DNA of 64,000 bases from an uncultured bacterium (GTDB lineage Bacteria; Patescibacteriota; Minisyncoccia; Phycocordibacterales; PALSA-1337), in the NCBI GenBank assembly GCA_903839725.1, contig CAIMDG010000001.1:235315-299314 (forward strand). Direction: 5' to 3'. A program made the position numbers and the translations under genes. The notes below the pieces were generated by a model. It did not search any database. It had not been told where the DNA came from and worked only from the letters and a program-made list of their open reading frames with translations. Numbering within the stretch: the first letter of the stretch is position 1; every line of letters starts with the position of its first letter. Below are positions 94 to 48,425 of the stretch, in pieces.

Positions 94-711
94 TTATTTG
101 TACCTCTTTTTGATCTCTTCAAAAATCTCCGGAAATTCTAATTCATTGAAATGGTTTTGGTCTTTAAAGGTATGCGCCACAGCACTTGGAAAGAGTTCTT
201 TGTATGTTTCGAAATCACTAAATGGAACGACGACATCATCGGTACTGTGGAATAATACAATATCTTTAACTTGATTCGTGACACCACTTATATCATTTCC
301 AAAAATAAAGTTGGTATTGTACGTATGTTTCTTATTCTTACCATCATACGGCACAGCGACGAGAATAAGAGCTTTGATCTTCTTGGGAACAACATTCTCA
401 GAGAGATATTTGATCAAGAATAAACCACCCAATGAATGACCAACGAACGTAGCATCATCTTTCAAAAAAGGAATCATCCGTTCAAACCACGCTTTCCATT
501 CTTCATAACGAGCGTTCTCTTTGTTCGGCATGCGTGGTGCAAATACTTCGAAGTGTGGTCCGAGCTTTTCTTGGAGTGTATCAGTCCATTTGTGAGATGG
601 TTTGAAATTGGAAACTATAACCGCCTTTGTTTTGAGACGATTCAAAAAGTCCTCGCGAGTATCGAGTGCATGACCGCCGTGAATGAGGATGATTTGGTGA
701 GGCATAGCCAT
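94..711 (-). CDS. alpha/beta serine hydrolase, YdeN/RBBP9-like
   Basis: VGHSLGG nucleophile-elbow motif and an IILIHGG start. It is a paralog of the 53827..54393 product. The ORF-track 5' extension to 951 runs through a 46-bp palindrome and is judged non-coding, so the start was placed at MAMPHQ. Confidence 0.6.
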   Translation of the reverse strand: MAMPHQIILIHGGHALDTREDFLNRLKTKAVIVSNFKPSHKWTDTLQEKLGPHFEVFAPRMPNKENARYEEWKAWFERMIPFLKDDATFVGHSLGGLFLIKYLSENVVPKKIKALILVAVPYDGKNKKHTYNTNFIFGNDISGVTNQVKDIVLFHSTDDVVVPFSDFETYKELFPSAVAHTFKDQNHFNELEFPEIFEEIKKRYK

Positions 712-906
712 ATTATGACATTTTCTAGATGTATTTGCTTGAATTAAAAACTTTTTATCTCGCCTATTTGATAATTTTGTGATATAATTTAGTAACAACT
801 TTATGTTTTCTAATAAATCATTCGGATCAAGACCCTCCACATTTTTAACATTAGTTAGATTTATTCTTGCAGTACAAATTATGGCCCTATCATTGACTTT
901 CGTGTT

Positions 907-952
907 CATGAGGAATACAATAGTCCCAATTGGGACTATTGTATTCCTCATG
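907..952. repeat. 46-bp perfect palindrome catgaggaatacaatagtcccaattgggactattgtattcctcatg
   Basis: Read directly from the sequence. It is intergenic, upstream of the hydrolase gene. Confidence 0.9.
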
Positions 953-1817: not shown

Positions 1818-3899
1818 TTATACTACTTTTTTCTTTCTTTTACCTTTCTTCCCCGTCACATCAACCCCATATTTCTCCTCCAACTTAAACAACTCATCTC
1901 GTATCAGCGCCGCAGTCTCAAAATCTAAAGCCTGCACAGCCTGCGCCATAGCTTCTTCCTTCTGCTTCATCAGTAACTTTGGGTTGGACTTCGCGAGATC
2001 TTCATCAAGCTTCACGAGTTCATACACAGCTTTATCGTGCTCACTGCGCAACTGATCAGTGATGTCATGAATTGCCTTTTTGATAGTTTGTGGAGTAATA
2101 CCGTGCTTGGTATTGTACGCAACCTGGATTGCACGACGACGATCGGTCTCGCGAATGGCATTACTCATAGAGCCGGTCATATTGTCAGCATAGAGGATAA
2201 CGCGACCAGCTGAGTTACGAGCCGCACGACCAATGGTCTGAATGAGTGATGTCTCTGAACGTAAAAATCCTTCTTTATCAGCATCGAGAATACCGATGAG
2301 TGATACTTCTGGCAGATCGAGACCTTCACGGAGGAGGTTAACACCAACAAGAATATCATACTTCCCTTTGCGGAAATCAGTAAGAATAGTAATGCGTTCA
2401 ATGGTTTTAATATCACTGTGGAGATATGCAGCCTTTATTTTCTTTCCTGCCTGCGCAGGCAGGTCCTTTATAAAATCTGTCAGGTCTTCCGCCATCTTCT
2501 TGGTCAATGTTGTAGCAATCACACGATCACCGATCTTGATTGTCTTCTCAGCTTCTTCGATGAAATCGAAAATCTGACCCTTATAGCCCTTACTCTCACG
2601 AATCGGACGAATATCAACCACTGGATCAATCAACCCTGTTGGACGAATGACCTGTTCAACAACCTGCTCACTATTGGCAGCTTCATATTTTCCTGGGGTT
2701 GCCGAGGTATATATCATCGGACCGATGCGCGCCAAGAATTCATCGAACTTCAACGGACGATTGTCTTTGGCTGAAGGCAAACGAAAACCGTGTTCAACCA
2801 GAGTCTCTTTACGTGAAGCATCACCGGCAAACATGCCGTTTAACTGAGGAATAGTTACGTGTGATTCATCGACAACGGTCAGGAAGTCAGGCTTACCATT
2901 CTTGTCCTTAGGAAAATATGCGAGAAGTGAATCGGGTGCTTCACCAGGCATTTTGCCAGAGAAATGGCGTGAATAGTTTTCAATACCATTGGTGTAGCCA
3001 ATTTCTTTAATCATCGAGAGATCGTACTTCACACGACGCTTCAGACGTTCAGCTTCGAGATTCTTGCCAGCTTTTTCGAGAACTTTGAGACGATCAGCGA
3101 GTTCAGCTTGAATAGTCTTCACGGCCTTTTCACTTTGCTCATCACTTGAAATGAAGTGCTTTGCAGGAAATATAAAAATATCTTTGTGATCATTGCGCAC
3201 AGACCTTGAAACGGGATCAAGTTCAACGATGTGACTAATCATGCCGCCTTCATATTCGATACGATACACAGTTTTTTCATTCACCGGCATAACTTCGAGC
3301 ATATTACCGAGTGCACGGAAATTACCAGACTTCAGATCAGCATTAGTACGTTCAAAATGAATATCGATAAGTTTACGAATGAGTTCAGCACGCGACAATT
3401 CCATGCCAACTGAAAGTTTAAGATTCACCTTCTGATATTCTTCAGGACTTCCTAAACCATATATACAAGAAACAGATGCAACAATGATCACATCTTTACG
3501 AGTGAGCAATGCTTGTGTCGAAGCGTGACGAAGACGCTCGATCTCTTCATTGATCATCGCTTCCTTCTCAATATAGGTATCAGTCGCTGGCATATACGCT
3601 TCTGGCTGATAGTAGTCGTAATACGAAACGAAATAGTGCACAGCATTATTCGGAAAAAATTCACGATACTCTTGAGCAAGCTGAGCGGCGAGTGTTTTGT
3701 TATGAGCAATAACCAAGGTTGGCTTATTGTAGTTTTTGATCACATTGGCCATAGTAAAGGTCTTTCCTGAGCCAGTGACTCCAAGTAGAGTTTGACGTTT
3801 GAAACCCTTTTTAAGGCCTTCATTCAGGCCTGAAATAGCCTTTGGTTGATCACCGGCTGGAGGAAATGGTGTGGCAAGCTTGAACATAGATTCAGACAT
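1818..3899 (-). CDS. uvrB: excinuclease ABC subunit B UvrB
   Basis: GVTGSGKTFT Walker A, helicase motifs and a C-terminal UvrB/UvrC-interaction coiled coil. Full-length at 693 aa. Confidence 0.95.
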   Translation of the reverse strand: MSESMFKLATPFPPAGDQPKAISGLNEGLKKGFKRQTLLGVTGSGKTFTMANVIKNYNKPTLVIAHNKTLAAQLAQEYREFFPNNAVHYFVSYYDYYQPEAYMPATDTYIEKEAMINEEIERLRHASTQALLTRKDVIIVASVSCIYGLGSPEEYQKVNLKLSVGMELSRAELIRKLIDIHFERTNADLKSGNFRALGNMLEVMPVNEKTVYRIEYEGGMISHIVELDPVSRSVRNDHKDIFIFPAKHFISSDEQSEKAVKTIQAELADRLKVLEKAGKNLEAERLKRRVKYDLSMIKEIGYTNGIENYSRHFSGKMPGEAPDSLLAYFPKDKNGKPDFLTVVDESHVTIPQLNGMFAGDASRKETLVEHGFRLPSAKDNRPLKFDEFLARIGPMIYTSATPGKYEAANSEQVVEQVIRPTGLIDPVVDIRPIRESKGYKGQIFDFIEEAEKTIKIGDRVIATTLTKKMAEDLTDFIKDLPAQAGKKIKAAYLHSDIKTIERITILTDFRKGKYDILVGVNLLREGLDLPEVSLIGILDADKEGFLRSETSLIQTIGRAARNSAGRVILYADNMTGSMSNAIRETDRRRAIQVAYNTKHGITPQTIKKAIHDITDQLRSEHDKAVYELVKLDEDLAKSNPKLLMKQKEEAMAQAVQALDFETAALIRDELFKLEEKYGVDVTGKKGKRKKKVV
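2446..2463. repeat. 18-bp perfect GC-rich palindrome CCTGCCTGCGCAGGCAGG inserted in frame in uvrB (encodes LPAQAG)
   Basis: Identical copy at 8389..8406 in rpiB. The AT-rich context makes it stand out. Confidence 0.9.
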
Positions 3900-4675
3900 G
3901 TGAATACTATAGCGTGTTTTCGGAACTTATGGAATTTGAAAATAAAAACCGCGGAATCTATATTGCAGATTCCGCGGTGCATTGCTCAAACCAACTATGC
4001 TCATAGTTCGCACACGTGCGACAAATTAATCGCTCGGACCACCAAACCCTTCACCCGAATGCTCGGTGGTGTTGATACCCGCTTCCGCAGAAACAAATAA
4101 GGGAACCTTGGCTTCAAGAGCCACAGGAGGAGGAAAGAAAATTGCCCTGATTTCCGCCCTCGTCAAGCTATTCTTGACCCAAGCATTGTGGATACGACGA
4201 TAGTCTGTCCCGTAATACCACCCGACGATGCCACGCTTCTGACGAGCCATGACATTGCTACCAGTGGTTGAACCGATCCTTGTCCGACATGGCCGCACGC
4301 CTTCTGGCAATACAGCCGGTGATGTATCTAGTTGCATAATGGTATGTATTTGTCCAAAGAACCAACTTCACTTTGTATTTCTTTCCGCACTCACGGTAGA
4401 AAAAGCGAACGGACCCCTTTGTTTGGGGCCCGTATCTGTAATCAAGAGATGATATTAATTACACAGACTGGACCCAAACAAGCATATCCTTTGCAAAGGA
4501 ATGCTTATAAGTTGAGACCACGTGTGTAATCCATATATTCATGTAAAAAGTATACATCAGCGTATATTGAATGCAAGTGGATTACAAAATATTCATTTTA
4601 GCAATAATGGACTTCAAATATTGACTAAATATAATGATTATAGTATGGTTCAGTAAATCAAAAGAAAGACATTGA

Positions 4676-4861
4676 ATGAAAAAATCTTGTCCAATAATTG
4701 AGGTTGGTAAAATTAATGCATCGGTAGCTCAAAGACGTGGCGGTCATGTGAATATAATAACAAGGCCATTAAAAGAAGCTCTGAAAGGAGCGGCTCGCCT
4801 GGCAAAACATCAATATGGTGAAACTTCACAAACTTTCAAATCAATCGCCTGTCGAATGTAA
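4676..4861 (+). CDS. small hypothetical protein (61 aa)
   Basis: ORF followed by a plus-oriented intrinsic terminator at 4888..4915. No recognisable domain. Confidence 0.25.
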   Translation: MKKSCPIIEVGKINASVAQRRGGHVNIITRPLKEALKGAARLAKHQYGETSQTFKSIACRM

Positions 4862-4887
4862 ATACACCTTATTCTCTATCATTACAC

Positions 4888-4915
4888 GCCGAGTCTAACT
4901 CGGCCTTTTATTTGA
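4888..4915 (+). terminator. rho-independent terminator (gccgagt-cta-actcggc + TTTTATTT)
   Basis: Stem-loop followed by a T-run on the plus strand only. Confidence 0.5.
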
Positions 4916-4921
4916 AAATAA

Positions 4922-5917
4922 TTATTTCCTCAGCATAACCTTACATGCAGCAGCATATATATCTTTTTCACCCATACCATAGTGTTCAATGAGTTCATCT
5001 GGTGTGCCTGACTGACCAAATTGGTCTATGACGCCAATGAATTCGATCGGTACTGGTTTGTGTGATGCGAGACATTCCGCAACAGCAGAACCCATACCTC
5101 CAGCGATCTGATGTTCTTCGACGGTAACAATTGCGCCGGTCTGATTTGCAAGCTGAACAATAGCATCAACATCAAGTGGTTTGATTGTTGCCAAATTTAA
5201 AACAATAACAGCCTTACCTTCTGCTTCCAATTTCTGCGCAACCTTAAGTGCTCGATGAAGTAATGCGCCCGTAGCAATAATCCCCACATTGAAACTTGAT
5301 CCTTGAGACTTGAACATTACTTCCGCTTTTCCTATCTCAAATGGTGTATCTTCAGTCGTGATGATCGGTGTCTTCTCGCGAGCAAGACGAATATACGTTG
5401 GCTCTTGTGTTTGTGCTGCAGCAATGGTTGCCTTACGTGCTTCGATAGCATCACAAGGTGAAATCACTACCATACGAGGAATAACACGCATGAGGGCAAT
5501 ATCTTCAATGGCTTGATGTGTTCCACCATCAGGACCAACAGAAACACCCGCATGTGAACCTGCAATTTTTACTGGTACATTATTGTAGGCAATCGTTGTA
5601 CGGATTTGTTCCCAATTCCTGCCCGGACTGAACATTGCATACGATGTCATGAATGGAATCTTGCCCATAGCAGCCATACCTGAAGCAACTCCTGCGAGAT
5701 TTTGTTCTGCAATACCCATCTCGATGAATCGATCTGAAAACTTCTGCTTGAATCCAGTCATCATCGTCGAATCAACAAGGTCCGCACATAATCCTACAAC
5801 ATTTCTATTCATCTCAGCAGCCTTCAATAACCCTTCACCAAAACCTTTGCGAATAGGAACTTGTTCGACATCTGTGTCGAAGATTTTTGAATTGAGTTGT
5901 TGAGATGGATTGATCAT
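4922..5917 (-). CDS. tkt: transketolase, C-terminal (pyrimidine-binding) subunit
   Basis: Transketolase Pyr and C-terminal domains (GSHAGVSVGPDGGTHQ...). Split-gene arrangement with the N-terminal subunit upstream. Confidence 0.9.
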   Translation of the reverse strand: MINPSQQLNSKIFDTDVEQVPIRKGFGEGLLKAAEMNRNVVGLCADLVDSTMMTGFKQKFSDRFIEMGIAEQNLAGVASGMAAMGKIPFMTSYAMFSPGRNWEQIRTTIAYNNVPVKIAGSHAGVSVGPDGGTHQAIEDIALMRVIPRMVVISPCDAIEARKATIAAAQTQEPTYIRLAREKTPIITTEDTPFEIGKAEVMFKSQGSSFNVGIIATGALLHRALKVAQKLEAEGKAVIVLNLATIKPLDVDAIVQLANQTGAIVTVEEHQIAGGMGSAVAECLASHKPVPIEFIGVIDQFGQSGTPDELIEHYGMGEKDIYAAACKVMLRK

Positions 5918-7082: not shown

Positions 7083-7111
7083 GTCGGGTATATTATACCA
7101 TGGAAGCGATA

Positions 7112-7209
7112 CAAATCCGCAAATGCATGCGAATGACGCAAATAAGCGCACCAAAATCTAAAATAGAGTGTGATTCATTCGCATTATTCGCATGCATTTG
7201 CGGATTTGC
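7112..7209. promoter_or_regulatory. long inverted repeat (caaatccgcaaatgcatgcgaat ... attcgcatgcatttgcggatttg) upstream of tkt; member of the AATGCGAAT palindrome family
   Basis: 23-bp perfect arms with a ~50-bp spacer, read from the sequence. Related sites at 7913..8001 and 41737..41797. Confidence 0.6.
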
Positions 7210-7216
7210 ATCGCAA

Positions 7217-7912: not shown

Positions 7913-8001
7913 TACGAATCTACGAATAATGCGAATCTACAAATTATTAATATGCGAATTGTTTGCGTTATTTGTGGCATTCGCATCATTTGTAGATTCG
8001 T
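7913..8001. promoter_or_regulatory. palindromic motif pair acgaatctacgaataatgcgaatctacaaat / atttgtggcattcgcatcatttgtagattcgt upstream of rpe
   Basis: Near-identical to the pair at 41737..41797 upstream of prfA. Confidence 0.6.
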
Positions 8002-21331: not shown

Positions 21332-22504
21332 TTAAAACAGTACCTTCTTTATAGCTTTGATAGTCGCATCAATGTCCCCTTTCTTTGACCATCTACCAAA
21401 TGAGAAACGAACCGAGGTAAGACTATCGGCACCTATAGATTTCAAAACATACGATTCATCCTCATCGCGTAGACAAGAACTTTTTGTAGAACAAGCGATT
21501 CCTTGAACATTGAGCTGAATAACAAAAAATTCATTGTCGATACGAGGAATAGAAACGTTCACGATATGCATTCCTGCACCGTTCACTTTCACTCCTTCAC
21601 GAACTGTTTGAATCTGCTTAATAAAATATTCACGTAGTTTACCAATACGAACTACTTCTGATTCACGCTCTACCGCCGCAATAGTAAGTGCTTTCGCAAA
21701 ACCCATAATTGCAGGAATATTTTCTGTACCTGGCCTCATTCCTGCCTCCTGACCTCCGCCATGAGTAACGTTCGCGATCGGTGTATTGCGCTTGATATAG
21801 AGAGCGCCAATCCCGCGTGGACCATATATTTTACTACTATCAAGTGTAAGGAGATCCACACCGAGTTTTTCTACATTCAATTCTTCATAGAGTGGTGCTT
21901 GTGCGGCATCAGTGTGAAAAATAGGATATTGGCATAACTGGAAATTGAATGGACTTTGTTCAGCATATTGCTTACGCGCGTTACGAACAATCTTGGCAAT
22001 CTCCCGAATCGGTTGTACAGAACCAATTTCATTGTTTACTGTCATGACCGAAACAATAACAGTATTCTTTTGTATCTTATTTTTGAGATCAGCGAGATCA
22101 ACAACGCCATGAGCATCAACGGCAACAACATCAAAAGATACATCGTACTCATTCAAGAAATTTGCACATTCACGCACTGACGAATGTTCAATAGCGCTAA
22201 TGACTACATGCATCGCTTCATATGGTACACCTTGAGCGCGCAGAGCTTGAATAGTACCAATGATGGCAATGTTATTTGCTTCAGTACCCCCAGAGGTAAA
22301 TGTTATTTCATCACTATGCGCATGAATGAAATCAGCGACTATGTTACGTGCATCTTGCAATGCTTTCTTTGCAGCAACACCTTCTGAATACAAAGATGAT
22401 GGATTGGCATACTTGTCCGAAGAATACAAAGTCACCTCGCGAATAACACGAGGATCTATAGGCGTTAATGAGGCGTAATCGAGATATATTCTGCGCTTGA
22501 TCAT
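21332..22504 (-). CDS. cysteine desulfurase (class V aminotransferase, NifS/IscS-like)
   Basis: PLP-fold sequence with SGGTEANN and a C-terminal active-site Cys region. Start set at MIKRRIYLDYAS. Confidence 0.8.
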   Translation of the reverse strand: MIKRRIYLDYASLTPIDPRVIREVTLYSSDKYANPSSLYSEGVAAKKALQDARNIVADFIHAHSDEITFTSGGTEANNIAIIGTIQALRAQGVPYEAMHVVISAIEHSSVRECANFLNEYDVSFDVVAVDAHGVVDLADLKNKIQKNTVIVSVMTVNNEIGSVQPIREIAKIVRNARKQYAEQSPFNFQLCQYPIFHTDAAQAPLYEELNVEKLGVDLLTLDSSKIYGPRGIGALYIKRNTPIANVTHGGGQEAGMRPGTENIPAIMGFAKALTIAAVERESEVVRIGKLREYFIKQIQTVREGVKVNGAGMHIVNVSIPRIDNEFFVIQLNVQGIACSTKSSCLRDEDESYVLKSIGADSLTSVRFSFGRWSKKGDIDATIKAIKKVLF

Positions 22505-22539
22505 ATAAATAAAATGTAGCATTAATTGAAAGAAGAACC

Positions 22540-22648
22540 AATAGGGGCACATGTACTTATTTTCTGCACAAGTTTAGAGACATGTACATTACATCGCGTA
22601 CCTCAATGTTTACAAACTTGTGCAGAAAATAAGTACATGTGCCCCTAT
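22540..22648. repeat. hairpin module E1: 36-bp perfect inverted arms around a 38-nt loop
   Basis: aataggggcacatgtacttattttctgcacaagttt - loop - aaacttgtgcagaaaataagtacatgtgcccctatt. Confidence 0.9.
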
Positions 22649-23046
22649 TGGTTTTTGATGTGGTATATGAAAACGCCACCACTTCTGGCAAGTGGCGGCG
22701 TGGTCCAAGGTTGATTCGTCCTCGCGGACGAATTATACATCAGATAGGTTGGGTTTGATTGCCAACCTCGTTTTTGATTGAAACTCAACGTATCAATGTG
22801 CGCCAGGGCACACGCCAGAATCATCCGGAAGTGCTCATGCATGGCCGCCGTGAATTCACGGGGTCTTGCAGAATTCCAACGGAAAGAGTGATACGTTGCA
22901 CCGATGCTCTGGGTAAACCAGAGTGTGCAAGCAGCTCCTACATACAGGAGCGGAAGAACATCAGTTGTGAAGATATTCATACCTAAAAAAAGTCTATAAC
23001 AAGGAGCATGTAATTGCAAGATGATGTAATACATAGCGACTAAGAA
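22649..23046. other. GC-rich (about 50 %) non-coding core with multiple stable hairpins between modules E1 and E2
   Basis: Contains a hairpin plus T-run at about 22746..22778, a ccgtgaattcacgg palindrome and a gctcctacatacaggagc hairpin. ORFs here have no protein-like features. Confidence 0.5.
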
Positions 23047-23156
23047 AACGGGGATGTATACACACTTTTTCTGTACAAGTTTGTAAACATTGAGGTACGC
23101 TGTGTAATGTAAGTGTCTCTAAACTTGTACAGAAAAAGTGTGTATGCACCCCCGTT
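23047..23156. repeat. hairpin module E2, an inverted copy of E1 with the loop conserved and arms diverged compensatorily
   Basis: The E2 loop is the reverse complement of the E1 loop (2-3 mismatches). The arms differ from E1 at many positions but remain self-complementary. Confidence 0.9.
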
Positions 23157-23202
23157 CTCTCCAACGATTCCTCAAAACAAAAATATATCGTATACTGGTG
23201 AT

Positions 23203-23688
23203 ATGAATTTTCAAACATTACTCAACAACCCACTTCTCATTGCCGTTATCATTCTTGCGATTGTAACCGTCATACTACTTGTATTACTTATCCTCATTCA
23301 TCTGAAACTCAAAAGATTTCTCGTCGGCGTTGATGCGCAACATATCGGAGATTCACTCGTAAATGTGTCTTCTGATGTTCGTGAATTGCAAGAATTCAGA
23401 ACTGAGCTCGAAAAGTATCTCACAGAGGTAGAACGTCGACTTAAAAAGAGTATTCAATCAGTGCACACAGTTCGTTTCAATCCATTCAAAGGTACTGGTG
23501 GTGGAGGCAATCAAAGCTTTGCTACCGCGTTTATCAACGAAGAAGGTGATGGTGTTGTTGTATCGAGTCTCTATTCTCGTGATCATGTAAGTGTATTTTC
23601 AAAGCCAGTCAAGAAACATGCTTCTGAATACGAATTGTCAGATGAAGAACGTGAAGTATTGGATGGTGCAAAGAAAGGATTGAAATAA
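23203..23688 (+). CDS. membrane protein, DUF4446-like
   Basis: N-terminal TM helix then VRFNPFKGTGGGGNQSFATAFINEEGDGVVVSSLYSRD, resembling DUF4446. From memory. Confidence 0.45.
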   Translation: MNFQTLLNNPLLIAVIILAIVTVILLVLLILIHLKLKRFLVGVDAQHIGDSLVNVSSDVRELQEFRTELEKYLTEVERRLKKSIQSVHTVRFNPFKGTGGGGNQSFATAFINEEGDGVVVSSLYSRDHVSVFSKPVKKHASEYELSDEEREVLDGAKKGLK

Positions 23689-26199: not shown

Positions 26200-26271
26200 G
26201 GCCACGTAGAAAAGTGGTAATTCGGAAGTCTGCAAAACTTCTATGCGCGAGTTCGATTCTCGCCGTGGCCT
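26200..26271 (+). tRNA. tRNA-Cys (GCA)
   Basis: Manual fold: acceptor ggccacg/cgtggcc, anticodon loop ctGCAaa, T-arm gcgag-ttcgatt-ctcgc. Confidence 0.8.
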
Positions 26272-26355
26272 CAAATCAGTAGAAAAAATTGGAATATAGA
26301 TTTATAAAAATCTGTATTTTTTAGTATCTGCAATTATTCATCTAACATAATATTA

Positions 26356-26877
26356 ATGCGAAAAAGAAGTTGGACAAAAGAAGATCTCGTAAAAGCGGTA
26401 ATAGAATCGAAGAGCGTGAGACAGACTATATCAAGGCTAAACCTTGTTGAAGCTGGTGGCAATTATAATCAAGTTAAGAAGTATATTAAATTATACAACT
26501 TAGATACATCACATTTTACTGGCTACACATGGAACAAAGGTATGTGTGGACGATATATGCCACTTATACCACTATCAAACATCTTAATAAGACATAGTGA
26601 ATTTCAAAGTTATAAACTTAAGAAACGTCTCTTCATCGAAAAAATCAAAACTCCCCAATGTGAAAACTGCGGTTGGGCAAAGAAATCAGAAGATGGTAGA
26701 ATCCCTCTTGAGCTTGACCATATCAATGGAGACAAGTACGATAATCGTATTGAGAACCTACGGGTTCTTTGTCCAAATTGTCATAGCTTACAACCTACAC
26801 ATCGAGGTAGAAATAAACACAAACGCCCGGGTGGTGAAATTGGTAAACACGTAACACTTAAAATGTTATCTTCGTAA
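26356..26877 (+). CDS. HNH endonuclease, homing-endonuclease-like freestanding type
   Basis: N-terminal SWTKEDLVKAV...GGNYNQVKKYI...DTSHF module and C-terminal HNH (LELDHINGDKYDNRIENLRVLCPNCH). The last ~53 nt of the ORF overlap tRNA-Leu. Confidence 0.8.
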   Translation: MRKRSWTKEDLVKAVIESKSVRQTISRLNLVEAGGNYNQVKKYIKLYNLDTSHFTGYTWNKGMCGRYMPLIPLSNILIRHSEFQSYKLKKRLFIEKIKTPQCENCGWAKKSEDGRIPLELDHINGDKYDNRIENLRVLCPNCHSLQPTHRGRNKHKRPGGEIGKHVTLKMLSS

Positions 26878-26908
26878 GGAGTTGTGGGTTCGATTCCCAC
26901 CCCGGGCA
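26825..26908 (+). tRNA. tRNA-Leu (TAA), type II with long variable arm
   Basis: Acceptor gcccggg/cccgggc, anticodon loop ctTAAaa, long variable arm, T-arm gtggg-ttcgatt-cccac. Confidence 0.8.
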
Positions 26909-26976
26909 CTCTGAATTTCATATATATTGTGAATATCTTTATAAACATTCCATTCTAAATTTGATATAATTTTTAT

Positions 26977-29055: not shown

Positions 29056-32000
29056 ATGTCCCGCTTCAGCCACCTCCACGTCCACTCCCACTATTCTTTG
29101 CTTGCGGCACTACCAAAAGTTGATGATTTGGTAGATGAAGCCAAGAAACTCGGCATGAAGGCATTAGCACTTACTGACAATGGTAACCTCTATGGTGCTA
29201 TTGAATTCTATAAAGCCTGCACGAAAAAAGAGATCAAACCTATCATTGGTGTCGACTTTTTTGTCGCCATCCGTTCACGCACAGATCAACAGGCAGGAAT
29301 AGACAACCGTCGCAGTCGTCTCGTCCTTCTTGCTATGAATGAAAAGGGGTATCAAAATCTCATCCAACTCGTTACACTCTCACACCTCGAAGGTTTCTAT
29401 TACAAGCCTCGTATCGACCGCGAACTTATCGAAAAATACAGTGAAGGTCTTATCTGTATTTCGCCTTCATTCGGAGGGGAAATATCACAATCCCTCAAAA
29501 GCAGAAATCAAGACAAGGCCATAGAAGTAGCCACGTTCTATAAAAAAGTATTTGGTGACAGGCTATATATCGAAATAAGTCGACATCCTGAAATCGATGA
29601 TCATGAAGGAAATATGAAAACCTTGGCCACCTTCGCAAAAAGCCAACAGATTCCAGTATGCGCCGCACATGATGTGTACTATCTCAAACCAGAAGATCGT
29701 TTTGCTCGTGAGACACTTGTACGCGTGAATTCTCACAGTGATTCATCTGATCGTATTTCTGACAGTGATGAAGATGATTTTTCCTTTATTTCACCTGAGC
29801 GAGCTGAAGAACTATTCAGGGACATGCCTGAAGCTCTCGACAATACCCAGAAAATAGTTGATTTATGTAATCTCACCATGGAACTGGGTAAATGGGTCTT
29901 CCCTGCATTCACCGTAGAAAGTGGACGAACACCAGATGATGAATTGCGTCATGTGGTATTCGAAGGATTTGCTCGACGTGGTATCGAAAAAACAGATGAA
30001 CTCGTGAAGCGTGCGGAGTATGAACTCAAAGTCATCAAAGACAAAGGGTATTCTCCATACTTCCTTGTGGTGGCGGACATGCTTCGGTTTGCCAGAGAAA
30101 ATGGCATATTGAGTAATATCCGCGGATCAGTTTCTGGATCGATGGTCACGTATCTCGCAGGTATCACCAACATAAACCCGATTGAATATGAAATTCCCTT
30201 TGAACGCTTCCTGAATCCTGAACGTCCATCTGCTCCTGATATCGACATGGACTATGCTGACGATCGTCGCGATGACATGATTACCTATGTCCGTGGAAAA
30301 TACGGCAAGGATCACGTCGCTCAAATCGGAACATTCGGTACCATGGCTGCTCGTGGTTCAGTTCGTGACGTCGCTCGTGCTATGGGATTCCCCTACGATG
30401 TTGCTGATCGTATTTCAAAGATGATTCCTATGGGTGCACAAGGATTTCCCATGACTATTGATCGTGCCTTGAATGAAGTACCTGAGCTCAAAGAAATCTA
30501 CAATTCTGAACAGGATACTCGACGTATTATTGATATGGCAAGAAAGATCGAAGGTTGTGCGCGTCACATCGGTGTGCACGCTGCTGGTGTGGTTATTTCT
30601 CCGACTGCACTTACCGATTACACCGCACTTCAGTTTGATCCAAAAGGTGAAGGCAAAATCATCACCCAATACGATATGTACTCGATCGAAGAAGCTGGTC
30701 TTCTCAAGTTCGACTTCCTTGGGCTCAAAAACTTAACTATTATTGCCGACAGTATTGATCGCATCGAAAAGCTCACCGGTATCAAAGTTGATTACGATAC
30801 TATTCCCGTCGATGATACAAAAACATTCGAAATGCTTGCTCGCGGAGAAACTGCCGATCTCTTCCAGTTGAACGGTGACGGTATGACTAGATTCCTGAAA
30901 GACTTGAAACCAACAACCATTCACGACATCAACGCTATGGTGGCACTGTATCGTCCAGGTCCTATTCAGTTCATCCCGGAATATATTGCCCGCAAACACG
31001 ATCGATCACTCATCAAATATCTTGACCCTGCACTCGAGACAATTCTCGACAAAACATATGGCATTCTCGTGTATCAAGACGACCTCTTGATGATGGCTCA
31101 CAAGCTCGCTGGATATAGTTGGGGTGAAGTGGACAAGTTCCGTAAAGCCGTTGGTAAAAAAATTCCTGAAGAAATGGCGAAGCAAAAAGAGAAATTCATC
31201 GAAGGTTGTGTGAAGCACAGCAAATGGTCAGAGAAAAAAGCTAAAGAAGTCTGGAAATGGATTGAGCCATTTGCAGCGTACGGTTTCAACAAAGCTCACT
31301 CAGTATCATATGGTCGCGTCGCATATATTACTGCATACCTCAAAGCGCATTTTCCTGAAATATATTTGTCGGCTGTCCTTACATCTGAACAAGGTGAAAC
31401 TGAAAAAGTTGCTGAAACTATCGCTGAATGTAAGCGCATGAATATTCCTGTTCTTCCTCCTGACGTGAATGAAAGTTTCAGTCAATTCACTGTGGTCAAG
31501 ACTCTTGCAGAGGTCTCTCCAGAGCGGGCGCCAACTCCAAACCAACCGGCACAACATGTGCATGTGGGACGACCTTCGGAAGGAGCGAAGGCGAATCAGC
31601 AGATTCGTGCTTGGCCGACTGAGAATGAGGTGCTGGCCGAGCACGGCCAGACACCGTTCGTCCCACATGCACATGTTGTGCCGGTTGGTTCTTATCGCAT
31701 TCGTTTCGGTTTGGTAACGATCAAAAACTTCGGCCAAGGAATATCAACCGGCATCACCGATGAACGCAAGCGAGCTGGAAAATTCAAGTCATTGAATGAC
31801 TTCCTCGATCGCGTCAAAGACAAAAACCTCAATAAAAAATCTCTCGAAGCCCTCATCAAATCTGGAGCCATGGATTGCTTCGGTATTGATCGCGGTGTCA
31901 TGATGGCGAACCTCGATCTCATTCTTGATTACAACAAAGAAAATGCAAATCAGCACAGTGATCAAACATCCCTCTTCGGCATGTTCACCAATGCCTCTGA

Positions 32001-32418
32001 TGTACCAACTCTTCGTCTCATCGATGCGCCTCATGCCACAATGCGCGCCAAACTCGCATGGGAAAAGGAATTGCTTGGCTTGTATGTTTCAGGACATCCC
32101 CTTGAAGAATACCGCGAAATAATCACCAAAAGAGATATCGACATCAAACGAGCTCTTGAAACCGGCAAAGAAGGTGGCACTGTGGTATTGGCAGCCATGA
32201 TCAATGATGTGCGCCTCATTCAAACAAAAAAGAATGAAACTATGGCATTCATTACTATTGCTGATTTTTCCGGAGAATCAGAGGCCGTTGTATTCCCTCG
32301 CGTCTACAATGAATTCAAAGCACTTATTGCTCCTGATATTTGTCTCGCAATCAAAGCAACAATTAATTCAAGAAATGGAGAAAAAGGATTTATTCTGGAA
32401 CGATTAAAAAAACTATAA
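29056..32418 (+). CDS. dnaE: DNA polymerase III alpha subunit
   Basis: PHP domain (HLHVHSHYS), palm, fingers and OB domains. It contains an about 55-aa in-frame insertion encoded by a GC-rich palindromic element at 31540..31690. Confidence 0.95.
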   Translation: MSRFSHLHVHSHYSLLAALPKVDDLVDEAKKLGMKALALTDNGNLYGAIEFYKACTKKEIKPIIGVDFFVAIRSRTDQQAGIDNRRSRLVLLAMNEKGYQNLIQLVTLSHLEGFYYKPRIDRELIEKYSEGLICISPSFGGEISQSLKSRNQDKAIEVATFYKKVFGDRLYIEISRHPEIDDHEGNMKTLATFAKSQQIPVCAAHDVYYLKPEDRFARETLVRVNSHSDSSDRISDSDEDDFSFISPERAEELFRDMPEALDNTQKIVDLCNLTMELGKWVFPAFTVESGRTPDDELRHVVFEGFARRGIEKTDELVKRAEYELKVIKDKGYSPYFLVVADMLRFARENGILSNIRGSVSGSMVTYLAGITNINPIEYEIPFERFLNPERPSAPDIDMDYADDRRDDMITYVRGKYGKDHVAQIGTFGTMAARGSVRDVARAMGFPYDVADRISKMIPMGAQGFPMTIDRALNEVPELKEIYNSEQDTRRIIDMARKIEGCARHIGVHAAGVVISPTALTDYTALQFDPKGEGKIITQYDMYSIEEAGLLKFDFLGLKNLTIIADSIDRIEKLTGIKVDYDTIPVDDTKTFEMLARGETADLFQLNGDGMTRFLKDLKPTTIHDINAMVALYRPGPIQFIPEYIARKHDRSLIKYLDPALETILDKTYGILVYQDDLLMMAHKLAGYSWGEVDKFRKAVGKKIPEEMAKQKEKFIEGCVKHSKWSEKKAKEVWKWIEPFAAYGFNKAHSVSYGRVAYITAYLKAHFPEIYLSAVLTSEQGETEKVAETIAECKRMNIPVLPPDVNESFSQFTVVKTLAEVSPERAPTPNQPAQHVHVGRPSEGAKANQQIRAWPTENEVLAEHGQTPFVPHAHVVPVGSYRIRFGLVTIKNFGQGISTGITDERKRAGKFKSLNDFLDRVKDKNLNKKSLEALIKSGAMDCFGIDRGVMMANLDLILDYNKENANQHSDQTSLFGMFTNASDVPTLRLIDAPHATMRAKLAWEKELLGLYVSGHPLEEYREIITKRDIDIKRALETGKEGGTVVLAAMINDVRLIQTKKNETMAFITIADFSGESEAVVFPRVYNEFKALIAPDICLAIKATINSRNGEKGFILERLKKL
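31540..31690. repeat. ~150-bp GC-rich nested palindrome inserted in frame in dnaE
   Basis: 33-bp perfect inverted arms aaccaaccggcacaacatgtgcatgtgggacga / tcgtcccacatgcacatgttgtgccggttggtt with inner palindromes. About 58 % GC against about 38 % for the gene. Confidence 0.85.
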
Positions 32419-41719: not shown

Positions 41720-41736
41720 AGTGGTTTAAATATAAT

Positions 41737-41797
41737 ACGAATCAACGAATAATGCGAATGCAACAAATTTGTAGCATTCGCATTATTTGTAGATTCG
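41737..41797. promoter_or_regulatory. palindromic motif pair acgaatcaacgaataatgcgaatgcaacaaat / atttgtagcattcgcattatttgtagattcg upstream of prfA
   Basis: Nearly identical to 7913..8001. Confidence 0.6.
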
Positions 41798-41804
41798 AAT
41801 CTCC

Positions 41805-44924: not shown

Positions 44925-46250
44925 TTAGACTTCATTCAAATATAATGTTTTATTATTAAGTTTAATTTTACTTTTTAAACAACTGAGCAACTCGCGTTTT
45001 TCAAAACTTGTACCTTCTCTTAGGATATATTTTGCATAGTTTCTGATTTCTATGTCCGCAACCTTTATCTTCTCGGTTTTACCAAGAACACCCGACTGAA
45101 ACTTCTTGTATCTCTCAACCTCAGCTTTTATATGCTCCTTCATACCGATCTCATCTAGATTAAGGGTGTCAATCATTTCCTCAAATTGTTTGATAAGATC
45201 TTCTTCTCGGATATACCCACACTTACAATCTTTATCTGCAAACCTGCTACATCCGTAGTACACATATCGATGCACATTTCCGTTAGCTTGTTTCTTGAAT
45301 TTCTCATCAGCAGTTATACCTGATCCACATAATCCACACTTGATGAGTTTCGTGAAGGCAAATTCCTTATTTTCAACTCGTATAATCGACCGTTGCATTT
45401 TCTCTTGCACGATATCAAATAGTTCCTTGGTGATGATCGGTTCATGTTTTCCCGTATACCATCGACCACTATTCTTTGGGTACTCGAAGCTACCGTAGTA
45501 GAAGTGATTTTTGAGGAGAATGTACACGTTGCTTAGGGTAAGTGGTTTACCTGACTTCGCTTTGAATTTGATTTCGTCCCGAAGCCAATAAAATATCTTT
45601 TTCCCACTCACGCCCTCATATGCCACTCGTTCGAACATCTTCTTCATGATCGGTGCTCGTTGATGATCTATATAGACGACCCCTTTCTCATTCACGTTGG
45701 TGCTATTAATGTAGCCTGTAGTTGCTACAGAAGGCCATAGACCCATCTCACACTTCGTTTTCAATCCTCGCTTCACATTGATGCTCTTGTTGTCGTTCTC
45801 GAGCTTAGCTTGGGATCCAAGGATCATGAGTAGGAACTTCTCATTTGGATTGTTCGTAAATTTCTGACTGTGCGTTCGTATCTCTATGAGGAGCTTCTGG
45901 TCAAGCAGATCGACAAGCGCTCCAAGATCTCCGGCATTTCTGCTCAGGCGATCAGGGTGCCATGTAATAATGCCGTTGAACTTTCCGCTCCGTATGTCTT
46001 GAAGAAGTTGATTGTACACAGGCCGTTGCCCGCAATCCTTTGCTGAATGGGACTCGCGATATACTTCAACAATATCGAGTTCGTCCCTTTGGGCAGTAGT
46101 GATCATTTCTTTGATCTGCGAGTCGATTGAAAGCGCTTGCCTTTCCTCCGCCTCACTCGATTTTCGAGCATAGAGGCAGTAACGTATTGGTAACGGCTTT
46201 ACCTCAAGATTGCCCATATTACTCCTCAGACCTATTGTTTTTGTTTCCAT
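44925..46250 (-). CDS. large serine recombinase (resolvase catalytic domain plus recombinase domain plus zinc ribbon)
   Basis: YARKSS catalytic Ser region, recombinase domain and C-terminal CxxC ... CxC cluster. Confidence 0.8.
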   Translation of the reverse strand: METKTIGLRSNMGNLEVKPLPIRYCLYARKSSEAEERQALSIDSQIKEMITTAQRDELDIVEVYRESHSAKDCGQRPVYNQLLQDIRSGKFNGIITWHPDRLSRNAGDLGALVDLLDQKLLIEIRTHSQKFTNNPNEKFLLMILGSQAKLENDNKSINVKRGLKTKCEMGLWPSVATTGYINSTNVNEKGVVYIDHQRAPIMKKMFERVAYEGVSGKKIFYWLRDEIKFKAKSGKPLTLSNVYILLKNHFYYGSFEYPKNSGRWYTGKHEPIITKELFDIVQEKMQRSIIRVENKEFAFTKLIKCGLCGSGITADEKFKKQANGNVHRYVYYGCSRFADKDCKCGYIREEDLIKQFEEMIDTLNLDEIGMKEHIKAEVERYKKFQSGVLGKTEKIKVADIEIRNYAKYILREGTSFEKRELLSCLKSKIKLNNKTLYLNEV

Positions 46251-46364: not shown

Positions 46365-48125
46365 ATGAAACTTAAGAAAGTCAACATATCGGGTTTCCGA
46401 TCAATAAAGAAAACTGAGATACTTCTTGTTGAAGAGAAGATGACTATTCTAATCGGTGCAAACGATCACGGAAAGACTAATATTTTGAGTGCAATTGAAT
46501 TTTTGAATGAGGAAAAAACTTTTGTTCCAGATGATATTAACTGGGATCTTGAGACTGATCCAGATATAACAATAGAATGGCATTTTACACCATCGAGCGC
46601 TGCACTTGAGAAACTTGCATCACTTGAACATCAAACTGTTGAAGGTGAAGAGAGGCCGCCAATGATTGAAACCAATAAAGAGAATGAAATAGTTTATTAC
46701 CGAAAACATAGCGATAATAAAATAAAGGTTAAAAGTGTTCCTGGTATAATCCCTGTAGCAAAAGAGGTAGATGTTTTACAGTTGAGACCACGTATTGAAT
46801 TATTTGCGCCTCCAACTGCGAACTTGAGAGATCAAGTAAACCTAGGTCAACTTGAAACTTTGGAATTTGAATTTATGCAAGGAATATTTAGACTTGCTGG
46901 TATTTGGGATGTAAGGAAGGATATTTTTGTACAAAATGATAAGACTTCAAAATTGCTTGATGAGGCGTCATTGAAACTTACTGAAGTCCTAAATACTAAA
47001 TGGAATCAAGGCAGAGATCTAAAATGGAAAATAGAGCACACAGGAACAAACGGTGATCATATAGCCATAAAGATTCAAGATCCCGCTATTGGGACAAGGT
47101 ATACACGACCCTCTCTTAGGTCGTCTGGTTTTCGTACCTATTTCTTGCTTTCAATGATTACTTATGCTCGAACTGAAAATAAGGTTGCAGATTCGTATGT
47201 GTATCTCTTTGATGAACCAGGCACATATTTGCATCCTCATGCTCAATTGGATCTACAACGTAGCTTTGAATCAATATCTGGAAAGACGCAGATTATATAT
47301 ACAACACATTCACTTTTTCTTATCAATAAAAACTATCCTGGTAGAAATCGTGTAATAAGCAAAGCGAAAGACGGCACTAAAATTGACCAAAAGCCTTTTG
47401 TAAAAAATTGGAAATCTGTCCGAGAGTCACTTGGTATACTACTTAGTAATAATTTTCTTATTGCTGAAAAAACTCTTCTTGTTGAAGGCCCTTCTGATGT
47501 GATTTATATTCTTCATGCAATTAAGAAACTTAAAGCGGCGGATGAAATAGACATCGATCTCAATGATCTAAGCGTTGTTGATGCTGGGACATCTGAAAAC
47601 TATCTTGCTATGGCAAAGTTGATGGTTGCTGAAGGTCGTGAGGTTGTCGCGCTTTTGGATGGTGATAAGAAAGGTGAAGAAATAGAGAAACAATTGAAAA
47701 AAGTTTGCGAAAAAGAAATTAAGGATGGGAAACTCCAGATTCTCAAACTCCCTAAGGATAAATCAATAGAAGATATATTCACTGATGTGTCTGTTACCAA
47801 AAAAGCAATTGAGGCACTTGCTACTGATCTTATTGGAATGGGTATTCGTAAGTTGAAAAACGGAATTAACCTTGCTGGCGAAGTTGCCAAAATCGCGCCA
47901 ACTACTACTTTAACACTCGGAAGAATCATAGATGAAAAAACAACTTCAATGTTTGATCCAGAAGAGAAGCTTTCAAAACTTTCTATCGCACTAAAATATG
48001 AGGATATTATGTCGGACTCGGTTGCACTACCAGATAATGCTAAAGAGCAGATAGAAAAAATTAAAGACAAACTTTCTCTTAAAAATGAGAGAAATGATGA
48101 AAAATCTATTTTTGAAGAGGTCTAA
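46365..48125 (+). CDS. OLD-family nuclease: ABC-type ATPase plus C-terminal TOPRIM (class 1 OLD / GajA / fused PARIS-like architecture)
   Basis: Walker A GANDHGKTN, Walker B YLFDEPGTYLHP. TOPRIM region with LLVEGPSDVIYI and LLDGDKKGEE. 586 aa. Confidence 0.75.
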   Translation: MKLKKVNISGFRSIKKTEILLVEEKMTILIGANDHGKTNILSAIEFLNEEKTFVPDDINWDLETDPDITIEWHFTPSSAALEKLASLEHQTVEGEERPPMIETNKENEIVYYRKHSDNKIKVKSVPGIIPVAKEVDVLQLRPRIELFAPPTANLRDQVNLGQLETLEFEFMQGIFRLAGIWDVRKDIFVQNDKTSKLLDEASLKLTEVLNTKWNQGRDLKWKIEHTGTNGDHIAIKIQDPAIGTRYTRPSLRSSGFRTYFLLSMITYARTENKVADSYVYLFDEPGTYLHPHAQLDLQRSFESISGKTQIIYTTHSLFLINKNYPGRNRVISKAKDGTKIDQKPFVKNWKSVRESLGILLSNNFLIAEKTLLVEGPSDVIYILHAIKKLKAADEIDIDLNDLSVVDAGTSENYLAMAKLMVAEGREVVALLDGDKKGEEIEKQLKKVCEKEIKDGKLQILKLPKDKSIEDIFTDVSVTKKAIEALATDLIGMGIRKLKNGINLAGEVAKIAPTTTLTLGRIIDEKTTSMFDPEEKLSKLSIALKYEDIMSDSVALPDNAKEQIEKIKDKLSLKNERNDEKSIFEEV

Positions 48126-48425
48126 ACATGACTGTTGGTAACTCGACTTCGCAACCCCTCTAATCTAAGCTAAGGTACAGGACAGATTTTGATATTTCTG
48201 GTATTATTATTTTACAACTGAATAAGTGACCTAACCCCTAAATAACCCTTTGTTTTCTAGGATATGGTCGAAAAGCCGTCCAAAGTAAAGAACTCCTAAT
48301 CAGAGCTACTTTGGACGGTCACATCTCGAAAGAGGTGTGGGCACTCCCTGCGGGGTTTGTCGGCCTGGTTAGGAGCTTTTTGCTATCTAGTTCTCGGTCA
48401 TTATTAGTAAAACCGTCCAAATTTT

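Follow-up and report, generated by a model that had tools for sequence, protein, structure and literature searches.

Long palindromes on either side of a small structured gene in a Patescibacteria genome: a possible case of arm maintenance at the DNA level

What keeps the two arms of a long hairpin complementary to each other while they diverge from the arms of a sister hairpin? The question is raised by a 64,000-nt stretch of contig CAIMDG010000001.1, from an uncultured Patescibacteriota bacterium (the window, by which we mean that whole stretch), in which two hairpin modules, E1 and E2, stand around a 386-bp core. A first-pass annotation had read the divergence of the arms as compensatory covariation and thus as selection on the hairpin, and had proposed a structured non-coding RNA (ncRNA) locus, an element like a miniature inverted-repeat transposable element (MITE) with hairpin termini, or a recombination cassette. 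We favor another reading, at roughly even odds: E1 and E2 would be DNA-level palindromes in two probably untranscribed spacers around an ancestral small gene, and neither RNA elements nor the termini of a mobile cassette. What argues for a DNA-level origin is the strict Watson-Crick mirroring of the arms, a mirrored indel, and the position of both modules outside the predicted transcripts.

Module E1 (22533-22656) consists of two 43-nt arms (22533-22575 and 22614-22656), complementary by strict count in 42/43 pairs, around a 38-nt loop that we call type A (22576-22613). Module E2 (23043-23160) has 40-nt arms (23043-23082 and 23121-23160), with 37/40 pairs complementary, and a 38-nt type-A loop in the orientation opposite to that of E1; the two self-complementary hairpins with 38-nt loops first described are therefore confirmed. 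A repeat finder drew the arms of E1 at 22533-22583/22606-22656 (51 nt, 92% complementary) and those of E2 at 23043-23089/23114-23160 (87% complementary), and aligned the modules, already annotated as inverted copies, in that relation over 86 nt at 85% identity. Their inner 70 nt (91%) form a shared apical unit, made of an inner stem TTTTCTGYACAAGTTT and the loop, whose E1 copy (22560-22629) is 91.4% identical to the reverse complement of 23067-23136. A 24-mer common to both modules has exactly two copies in the window, where 0 would be expected. Little should be made of the opposite orientations of the loops, since a loop held between 40-bp inverted arms may flip by recombination. Arm-to-arm identity between E1 and E2 is 28/43 (~65%) and each arm pair is still 93-98% self-complementary, so the arms do diverge while remaining paired. 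As RNA, E1 folds at -78.4/-74.8 kcal/mol and E2 at -62.8/-64.3 kcal/mol, and relative to dinucleotide shuffles z ranges from -12 to -18 on both strands; DNA parameters gave z = -15.5 (E1) and -10.8 (E2).

To follow the modules in relatives, syntenic loci (L-numbered) were fetched via the two flanking proteins, a DUF4446 family protein and a class-V aminotransferase. Three assemblies of the same strain (L001-L003) are 100% identical across the segment and thus uninformative. L042 (95% amino-acid identity in DUF4446, ~85% nucleotide identity) holds the core at the same place with ~86% identity. Its E1 has basal arms orthologous to those of the window and, at the apex, an unrelated 64-nt loop (type B). 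Between the basal arms of the two E1 modules, 5/5 substitutions and one 1-bp indel (an insertion in L042) are mirrored in the opposite arm. From E2, alignment and BLAST coordinates place 86 nt (23054-23139) as missing in L042, which is left with a short hairpin AGAGCGCG..CGCGCTCT and a single GTGCATACAC. The core is missing from L122/L123 (84% aminotransferase identity). There, a single module with a type-B loop and 37-nt arms (36/37 pairs complementary) makes up the 210-nt spacer and stands between the promoters of the two genes. A type-B module also adjoins DUF4446 in L037/L038 (88% relative), where the contigs of three assemblies begin inside the module, ~140 nt upstream of the gene. The type-B loops of L042 and L122 are 84% identical over 77 nt. 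Taking the four complete modules together, 154/159 arm pairs are complementary within modules (42/43, 37/40, 39/39 and 36/37), compared with a between-module arm identity of 52-72%. The mismatches are few, are transitions and show no G.U strand bias.

These mirrored differences are real, so the covariation first described stands as a pattern; as for its cause, mirror copying of DNA fits better than selection on an RNA hairpin. The absence of G.U strand bias in the module arms points in the same direction, because the small hairpins of the core do show such a bias (11 G.U-kept single changes in the minus sense vs 2 in the plus sense). Position is also informative. E2 has the promoter of the small gene on one side and the divergent promoter of DUF4446 on the other, and is for that reason probably untranscribed; E1 lies between the terminator of the small gene and the promoter of the aminotransferase gene, overlapping the candidate -35 box of the latter. 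Judging from these motifs, both modules would fall outside the predicted transcripts.

An RNA-level role would require instead that E1, and E2 perhaps via read-through, be transcribed as a giant bidirectional terminator or 3' stabilizer, like the hairpins of enterobacterial repetitive intergenic consensus (ERIC) and repetitive extragenic palindromic (REP) sequences, with the covariation reflecting RNA-stem selection, as the annotation had argued. E1 does stand directly after the weak-tailed terminator of the small gene. On both strands, A-rich and U-rich runs adjoin its GC-rich basal pairs, which look terminator-like (AAGAACCAA...TTGGTT(T/C)TT), and the tail after E1 aligns with the U-tract that follows the single terminator of L126. 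However, neither E2, situated upstream of the two promoters, nor the L122 module, enclosed by divergent ones, should be transcribed, and the arms carry mirrored indels with neither G.U usage nor strand bias, whereas the RNA-constrained hairpins of the core use G.U. Moreover, a terminator scan left E1 and E2 unreported and picked up only the hairpin at 22701-22673; measured against the definition of an intrinsic terminator (GC-rich stem of ~5-14 bp, loop 3-8 nt, U-tract) the modules fail, with stems of 40-43 bp (43 bp in E1) and 38-nt loops far outside that geometry. We therefore consider a function of the modules as RNA unlikely. The Rfam scan that had been suggested was run: at the gathering threshold of Rfam 15, no family matched within 22300-23400, and at E<=10 only generic long-hairpin miRNA models appeared there, far under threshold, as they did in L039. 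ARAGORN placed no tRNA or tmRNA at the segment, and RNase P RNA, tmRNA, 6S and T-box RNAs, which had been considered, found no support in Rfam.

Is the small gene between the modules their cargo? Homologues of the core were recognized by nhmmer and manual inspection in L126, L047, L089 and L077/L086, with remoter versions in L056, L100 and L046, and all of them lie between DUF4446 and the aminotransferase gene, on the strand of the latter. As L047, L089 and L126 hold the gene without long flanking hairpins, the core is not the cargo of a hairpin-ended mobile element; L077 has it without modules of the E1/E2 type. The proposal of a MITE-like element with hairpin termini fails on this ground, the core being ancestral at its syntenic site. 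The gene is missing in L043, L044, L048 and L052, which have a short spacer, and L128 and L131 carry a shorter promoter-terminator unit of 75-110 nt in its stead. A 93% relative, P0002, was dismissed as an example of an empty site: a 120-aa minus-strand open reading frame (ORF) beside DUF4446 fits the frame of the small ORF, and the contig ends inside the core. In L039 (77% relative) the DUF4446-aminotransferase spacer, which is a turnover hotspot, extends to 1.2 kb (3798-5001) and holds an unrelated 205-aa ORF and a GC-rich stretch of ~400 nt with no similarity to the core of the window.

How could such palindromes have arisen? Comparison with relatives shows that each module combines an older local hairpin at its base with the shared palindromic unit of 70-86 bp at its apex. 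The base of E2 is the short GC hairpin that still stands alone in L042. In E1 the base is a GGGGC../..GCCCC stem of terminator-like form, with the -35 box TTGGTT of the neighboring gene as 3' tail; it looks like an old terminator/promoter spacer turned part of the palindrome, as suggested by the U-tract alignment with L126 and by the -35 hexamer. This TTGGTT (22536-22541, minus strand) is the candidate -35 box of the aminotransferase gene (17-nt spacer, -10 TACATT at 22513-22518, ATG at 22504), a promoter function inferred from consensus; it doubles as the outer end of one E1 arm, the other arm ending in a mirror copy. The arrangement TTGGTT-17 nt-TA(C/G)ATT also occurs in the module-free L126, L128 and L131. 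TTGGTTCTT was rejected as a terminal motif specific to the element: its 3 occurrences in the window against ~1 expected are not significant, and TTGGTT is the ancestral -35 box in module-free relatives.

Between E1 and E2 the apical unit is 91% identical, compared with ~69% identity at neutral sites between the window and L042, so either it is recent at one of the two sites at least, or the copies were homogenized. Once the lineage of L042 had branched off, one hairpin may have passed the unit to the other, or both may have received it from another source, and the palindromes would thus have grown as a small palindromic unit was inserted or copied into the tips of hairpins already there. Palindromic insertions do occur in this lineage, the 151-bp case in dnaE being an example that supports this reading. 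The arms would be kept near-perfect by intrastrand template switching or repair, whether as quasipalindrome correction or through birth as an inverted duplication, and RNA base pairing would not be the selected trait in them. Quasipalindromes become perfect or more perfect through template switching (PMC7202029), which is probably what maintains the arms of E1 and E2. In the Ripley model, and in the reporters of the Lovett laboratory, one mutational step copies arm onto arm (PMC7202029), which matches the mirrored substitutions and indel of E1. The process is known, however, as a hotspot mechanism in short (10-30 bp) quasipalindromes of E. coli, T4 and yeast. To our knowledge, no description exists of it maintaining 40-bp arms with loops of 38-64 nt over the long term. 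The modules may persist since their spacers tolerate them, and their homology could drive rearrangements. The loss of the small gene in L122, with one module left, would be a likely example, and the simplest account of that state is that flanking modules recombined with each other.

If this reading is true, it carries a caution for RNA discovery, in that perfectly compensated long stems can stem from mirror copying at the DNA level and need not mean a functional RNA. It would also mean that fast-evolving nested palindromes occur in the promoter-terminator spacers of the very compact, poorly studied genomes of Patescibacteria, that a likely palindrome-mediated gene loss has been documented, and that a lineage-restricted small gene combining an always-open leaderless ORF with a constrained RNA fold had gone unannotated. 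Current understanding is not overturned; rather, the locus provides material on the birth and upkeep of perfect palindromes in natural populations.

Several observations weigh against the DNA-level reading as set out here. The apical unit has two copies in the window, both at one locus, and none in ~0.9 Mb of related contigs; blastn against phage and plasmid collections gave no match, and scanning viral contigs with a type-A 21-mer, a type-B 20-mer and a gapped inner-stem pattern gave 0 matches. Mobility of the unit is therefore deduced from a single presence/absence difference. No transposase appeared in a Pfam scan of the window ORFs of at least 100 aa. A clear target-site duplication was not seen: the E2 insert has a 10-bp flank that is near-palindromic in its own right, and the flanks of the L042 E1 apex, GTATGT/ACATAC, are inverted rather than direct. 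The conservation of the type-B loop between genomes (84%) means that the loops could be functional, and the transcription status of E1 and E2 is deduced from promoter and terminator motifs only. Finally, the E2-equivalent spacer of L077 (7079-7238; L086 9785-9944; 59% DUF4446 identity) contains an unrelated nested hairpin of 160 bp, with 28-nt outer arms and a 104-nt loop that has its own inverted repeat of ~20 bp, which hints that this spacer site may favor hairpins for some reason.

The 18-mer CAATGTTTACAAACTTGT gave 31 single matches in genome contigs of unrelated taxa, which BLAST extended by 19-27 nt only and which we attribute to chance. A link between the L042-type loop and a palindrome inside an ORF of L059 was not significant by BLAST. 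The first-pass annotation had itself named a lack of further loop copies and a lack of conservation in relatives as grounds for giving it up: in the sequences searched the loop sequence has no copy beyond the two at the locus, and the core is kept at the same syntenic site.

The presence/absence of the apical unit also raises the possibility of a conventional non-autonomous transposon (MITE/REPIN-like) that is aimed at hairpin apices or terminators and mobilized in trans by a transposase located elsewhere. The 86-nt unit is present in the window and absent in L042 at the apex of a pre-existing hairpin, one genome holds two 91%-identical copies, two loop types are swapped at one site between relatives, and palindromes are inserted in-frame in dnaE and in further ORFs of related genomes. 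In REPINs, moreover, hairpins with compensatory changes are common (PMC3116915). REPINs and REP-BIME elements resemble the modules in being hairpin-forming intergenic DNA of ~100-120 bp in extragenic spacers, often beside terminators. However, REPINs consist of conserved 16-25-nt ends and a variable spacer, whereas in E1/E2 the loop and inner stem are conserved (84-91%) and the arms vary (52-72%), so that conservation runs opposite to theirs; and a genome with REPINs has tens to hundreds of them together with a RAYT gene, in contrast to two copies at a single locus, no dispersed copies in any searched sequence, and no match to Y1_Tnp/RAYT in the Pfam scan of the window ORFs. Of the properties of a MITE, terminal inverted repeats were found (40-43-nt arms, 93-98% complementary), while dispersed copies (two in 64 kb at one locus, none in the ~0.9 Mb) and a cognate transposase (window ORFs of at least 100 aa) were not. 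A simple target-site-duplication model for the apical insert was rejected, being ambiguous at E2, where the flanks ATGTATACAC/GTGTATGCAC agree at 8/10 positions as a direct repeat and equally at 8/10 as an inverted one, and contradicted by the E1 of L042. ERIC/IRU, Correia, RUP and Nezha MITEs are likewise imperfect intergenic palindromes, of ~120-150 bp. ERIC has variants made by internal insertions, and elements of this type affect neighboring transcripts. Those MITE families are marked by terminal inverted repeats that are fixed, by duplicated target sites (TA for Correia/ERIC) and by numerous dispersed copies, and E1 and E2 showed no such traits. A conventional transposon thus seems distinctly unlikely.

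E1 and E2 are akin to palindromic intergenic elements, with reversed conservation, low copy number, host-derived arm ends and no evident mobilizing enzyme. A more speculative variant, which we think unlikely to be right, would see in them selfish palindromic DNA of an undescribed kind in the candidate phyla radiation (CPR). The apical unit would enter the apices of existing hairpins, such as those of terminators and small palindromes, and the arms would be built from local flanks and re-copied by fold-back synthesis, so that loops are shared, arms are not and no target-site duplication is left; related elements would lie in-frame in essential genes such as dnaE, and homology between such elements would drive gain and loss of small genes nearby. 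Rickettsia palindromic elements offer a partial parallel, as the dnaE palindrome and the palindromes in ORFs of relatives are in-frame insertions in protein-coding genes; they differ in forming multi-copy families with no sequence relationship to those seen here, and E1 and E2 are intergenic.

Could the modules be recombination sites, that is, attC-like or inverton repeats at which a site-specific recombinase inverts or excises the small gene as a cassette? As in an inverton, 86-nt inverted repeats at 85% identity bracket the small gene and its promoter; the single module and missing core of L122 are as expected from excision between two sites, and the E2 arms show AAC...GTT beside a GGGG/CCCC run. 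Nevertheless, the core is ancestral here without modules, the repeats are inverted and not direct, and the three same-strain contigs and L042 all have the same orientation. The attC core sites RYYYAAC...GTTRRRY are unmatched (GAAAAAC...GTTCTCT in E2, GAAGAAC...GGTTTTT in E1), and the stems are 93-100% paired, with no bulges, extrahelical bases or unpaired central spacer. Neither an IntI-type integron integrase nor a small invertase matched in the Pfam scan of the window ORFs, where the sole recombinase is a large serine recombinase ~22 kb away, in an island beside tRNA-Gln. With the defining attC and inverton features failing, the recombination cassette first proposed is very improbable, and we return to palindromes maintained at the DNA level.

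Such palindromes might nonetheless have a function as DNA structure, selected in these spacers as cruciform-forming insulators, supercoil buffers or loop-binding platforms between packed leaderless promoters, separating DUF4446, the small gene and the cysteine-desulfurase-like (aminotransferase) gene. Hairpins recur in the same spacer of independent lineages with unrelated sequences (E2 of the window, the single module of L122, the nested hairpin of L077/L086), loop sequences are kept across genomes at 84-91%, the arms are held near-perfect, and the promoters are tightly packed, with a -10-like hexamer 6-12 nt before the ATG of all three genes. On the other hand, L126, L047, L128 and L131 manage with no long hairpin at these spacers, most of E2 was lost from L042 or never there, and no candidate binding protein is known. 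Central loops of 38-64 nt also disfavor cruciform extrusion. Overall, we hold a structural function to be unlikely.

What, then, is the gene that the modules surround? The core has a GC content of ~0.50 vs 0.41 in the window and folds strongly on both strands (z = -6.1 and -5.2), which agrees with its first description as ~50% GC and hairpin-dense, and the small hairpins and palindromes named at that time are all present. The further statement that it holds no credible ORF was wrong, because a reading frame is kept open there in nine lineages. Gene callers place a 129-codon ORF (22645-23034, minus strand, first in-frame ATG at 23034) that fills the core, and 111 codons run from the ATG at 22980 (22645-22980, minus strand). 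A candidate sigma-70-type promoter precedes the latter at 22991-23019 on the minus strand (-35 TTGCAA at 23014-23019, 17-nt spacer, -10 TAGACT at 22991-22996); its function is inferred, and its hexamers and spacing are kept in the window, L042, L126, L047, L089 and L077. The predicted transcript (22665-22984, minus strand) would be ~320 nt long and highly folded, ending in the terminator-like hairpin 22701-22673 followed by UUUUCAUAU. Common to the core homologues are a promoter TTG(C/T)(A/T)(A/T), 16-17 nt, TA(G/A)A(C/T/A)T, an ATG 10-12 nt past the -10 box, and a folded region; the terminator-like hairpin is found in most of these lineages, weak in L047 and L077. With the ATG so close to the -10 box, the mRNA would be leaderless. 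In each of the three genes at the locus, 6-12 nt separate a -10-like hexamer from the ATG (22504-22541, 22980-23019 and 23191-23205) and a Shine-Dalgarno sequence is absent, and this spacing, kept in relatives, suggests leaderless or near-leaderless mRNAs for each of them.

The ATG frame of 63-111 codons has 0 stops over the first 62 codons in 9/9 lineages, against 1-6 stops in the other two frames of the core; shuffling gave p = 0.008-0.11 per lineage for an open frame. In L042, core indels of -1 and +4 restore the reading frame, and L126 keeps open a frame that is offset from the conserved nucleotides. The predicted peptides all have an N-terminal hydrophobic stretch, and 8/9 a basic tail, the exception being L077. 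A test for purifying selection on the 22645-22980 ORF, by third-position excess and lack of frame-breaking indels, failed: between the window and L042 the core differences by codon position (1/2/3) are 13/16/14, with indels of -1, +4 and -1, as opposed to 18/10/121, 7/1/54 and 7/5/63 in flanking genes. The core is nevertheless constrained, though not as a conserved amino-acid sequence, since its divergence of 13.6% is far under the ~31% at third positions of the flanking genes.

Structure may account for this constraint. When the differences between the window and L042 are placed on the minimum free energy (MFE) fold of the window, 14/22 substituted pairs stay paired in the minus sense vs 6/22 in the plus sense; those kept in the minus sense comprise 3 double changes and 11 single changes through G.U, compared with 2 single G.U-kept changes in the plus sense. 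Among lineages, core hairpins covary (e.g. TGTGC/GCACA, TGCGC/GCGCA, TATGC/GCATA, CGTGC/GCACG), and RNAalifold suggests a long-range pairing of CUGGC with the GCCAG of the terminator loop, with one G-C to A-U switch. The structural claim rests on the window-L042 pair, a five-sequence fold and individual hairpins, as the six-sequence RNAalifold run misaligned L126. The substitutions in the core are thus of the kind expected from an RNA structure on the minus strand and not from a conserved protein. To this extent the proposed structured ncRNA locus survives, in the RNA-type structure of the core and its compensatory and G.U changes; yet the core carries an open ORF, and the hairpins are not parts of one RNA with it. 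We read the small gene as a putative structurally constrained transcript with a translated ORF of which only the peptide architecture is conserved.

The ORF found only itself in a word-indexed search of 5.8e9 proteins. By phmmer against 1.84e9 representatives it matched itself and, weakly, long unrelated proteins, matches that we judged spurious; no family matched in Pfam or NCBIfam. A type I toxin-like system is a possibility. The small ORF, hydrophobic N-terminus, basic tail, highly structured mRNA and possible plus-strand antisense unit are reminiscent of type I toxin-antitoxin and small membrane-peptide genes, but the peptides (63-111 aa) are longer than most type I toxins, no family matches the core, and the antisense RNA is only a candidate from motifs. 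This convergent unit would occupy 22661-22778 of the plus strand, with an extended -10-like TGGTATATG at 22661-22669 that is kept as TGATATATG in L042, and three hairpins and then a T-run (22771-22775) downstream, including the hairpin plus T-run at 22746-22778. The stretch 22661-22778 is the best-conserved part of the core between the window and L042.

The locus is otherwise set in what the Pfam scan of all window ORFs of at least 100 aa describes as an ordinary chromosomal region. The names that homologues bear in their sources point to Patescibacteria/CPR, with names of the Parcubacteria/Paceibacteria type. The class-V aminotransferase/cysteine-desulfurase-like gene (21332-22504, minus strand; PF00266, E = 2.7e-58) and the DUF4446 gene (23203-23688, plus strand; PF14584, E = 6.3e-33; -10-like TATACT at 23191-23196) are divergently oriented. 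An ORF for an HNH endonuclease (26356-26877) lies between tRNA-Cys (26200-26272) and tRNA-Leu (26825-26909), overlapping the latter with its 3' end. The segment 42759-51500 is a probable integrated island next to tRNA-Gln, with genes for a MamI-type restriction enzyme, two DNA methylases (one fused to ParB_N), the large serine recombinase (44925-46250), an OLD-like AAA/TOPRIM nuclease (46365-48125), an HTH_Tnp_1_2 protein and an FtsK-gamma protein. A LOOT RNA (Rfam RF03000, 68.8 bits) follows at 48228-48357, immediately past the OLD-like gene.

Other palindromes were seen in this lineage. The dnaE ORF (29056-32418) contains at 31540-31690 the in-frame 151-bp palindrome mentioned above, with perfect arms of 33 bp and an 85-nt GC-rich loop, encoding ~50 aa of a hypervariable linker between FSQFTVVK and YRIRFGLV that spans 5-65 aa in relatives; L101 has a different palindrome of 115 bp at the same place, L080/L082 an insert with a small hairpin (ATCCCCGTTTTCACGGGGAT), and some relatives none. 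A second, unrelated family of intergenic palindromes, with arms like ACGAATC(A/T)ACGAATAATGCGAAT, occupies spacers beside gene starts or ends at 7106-7214, 7914-8001 and 41735-41800, and a perfect 25+25-bp palindrome with no spacer (TTCATGAGGAATACAATAGTCCCAA/TTGGGACTATTGTATTCCTCATGAA) stands at 905-954, at the start of a hydrolase-like ORF (94-951, minus strand). Among CPR relatives, palindromes of 115-170 bp with near-perfect arms of 29-38 nt and loops of 56-103 nt were located in L059 (18738-18879), L091 (17499-17625), L093 (918-1076), L105 (1570-1740) and L109 (17042-17159). Those of L059 and L091 are inside long ORFs (402 and 450 codons), and a 17-nt loop motif is common to L099 and L109 (E = 0.003).

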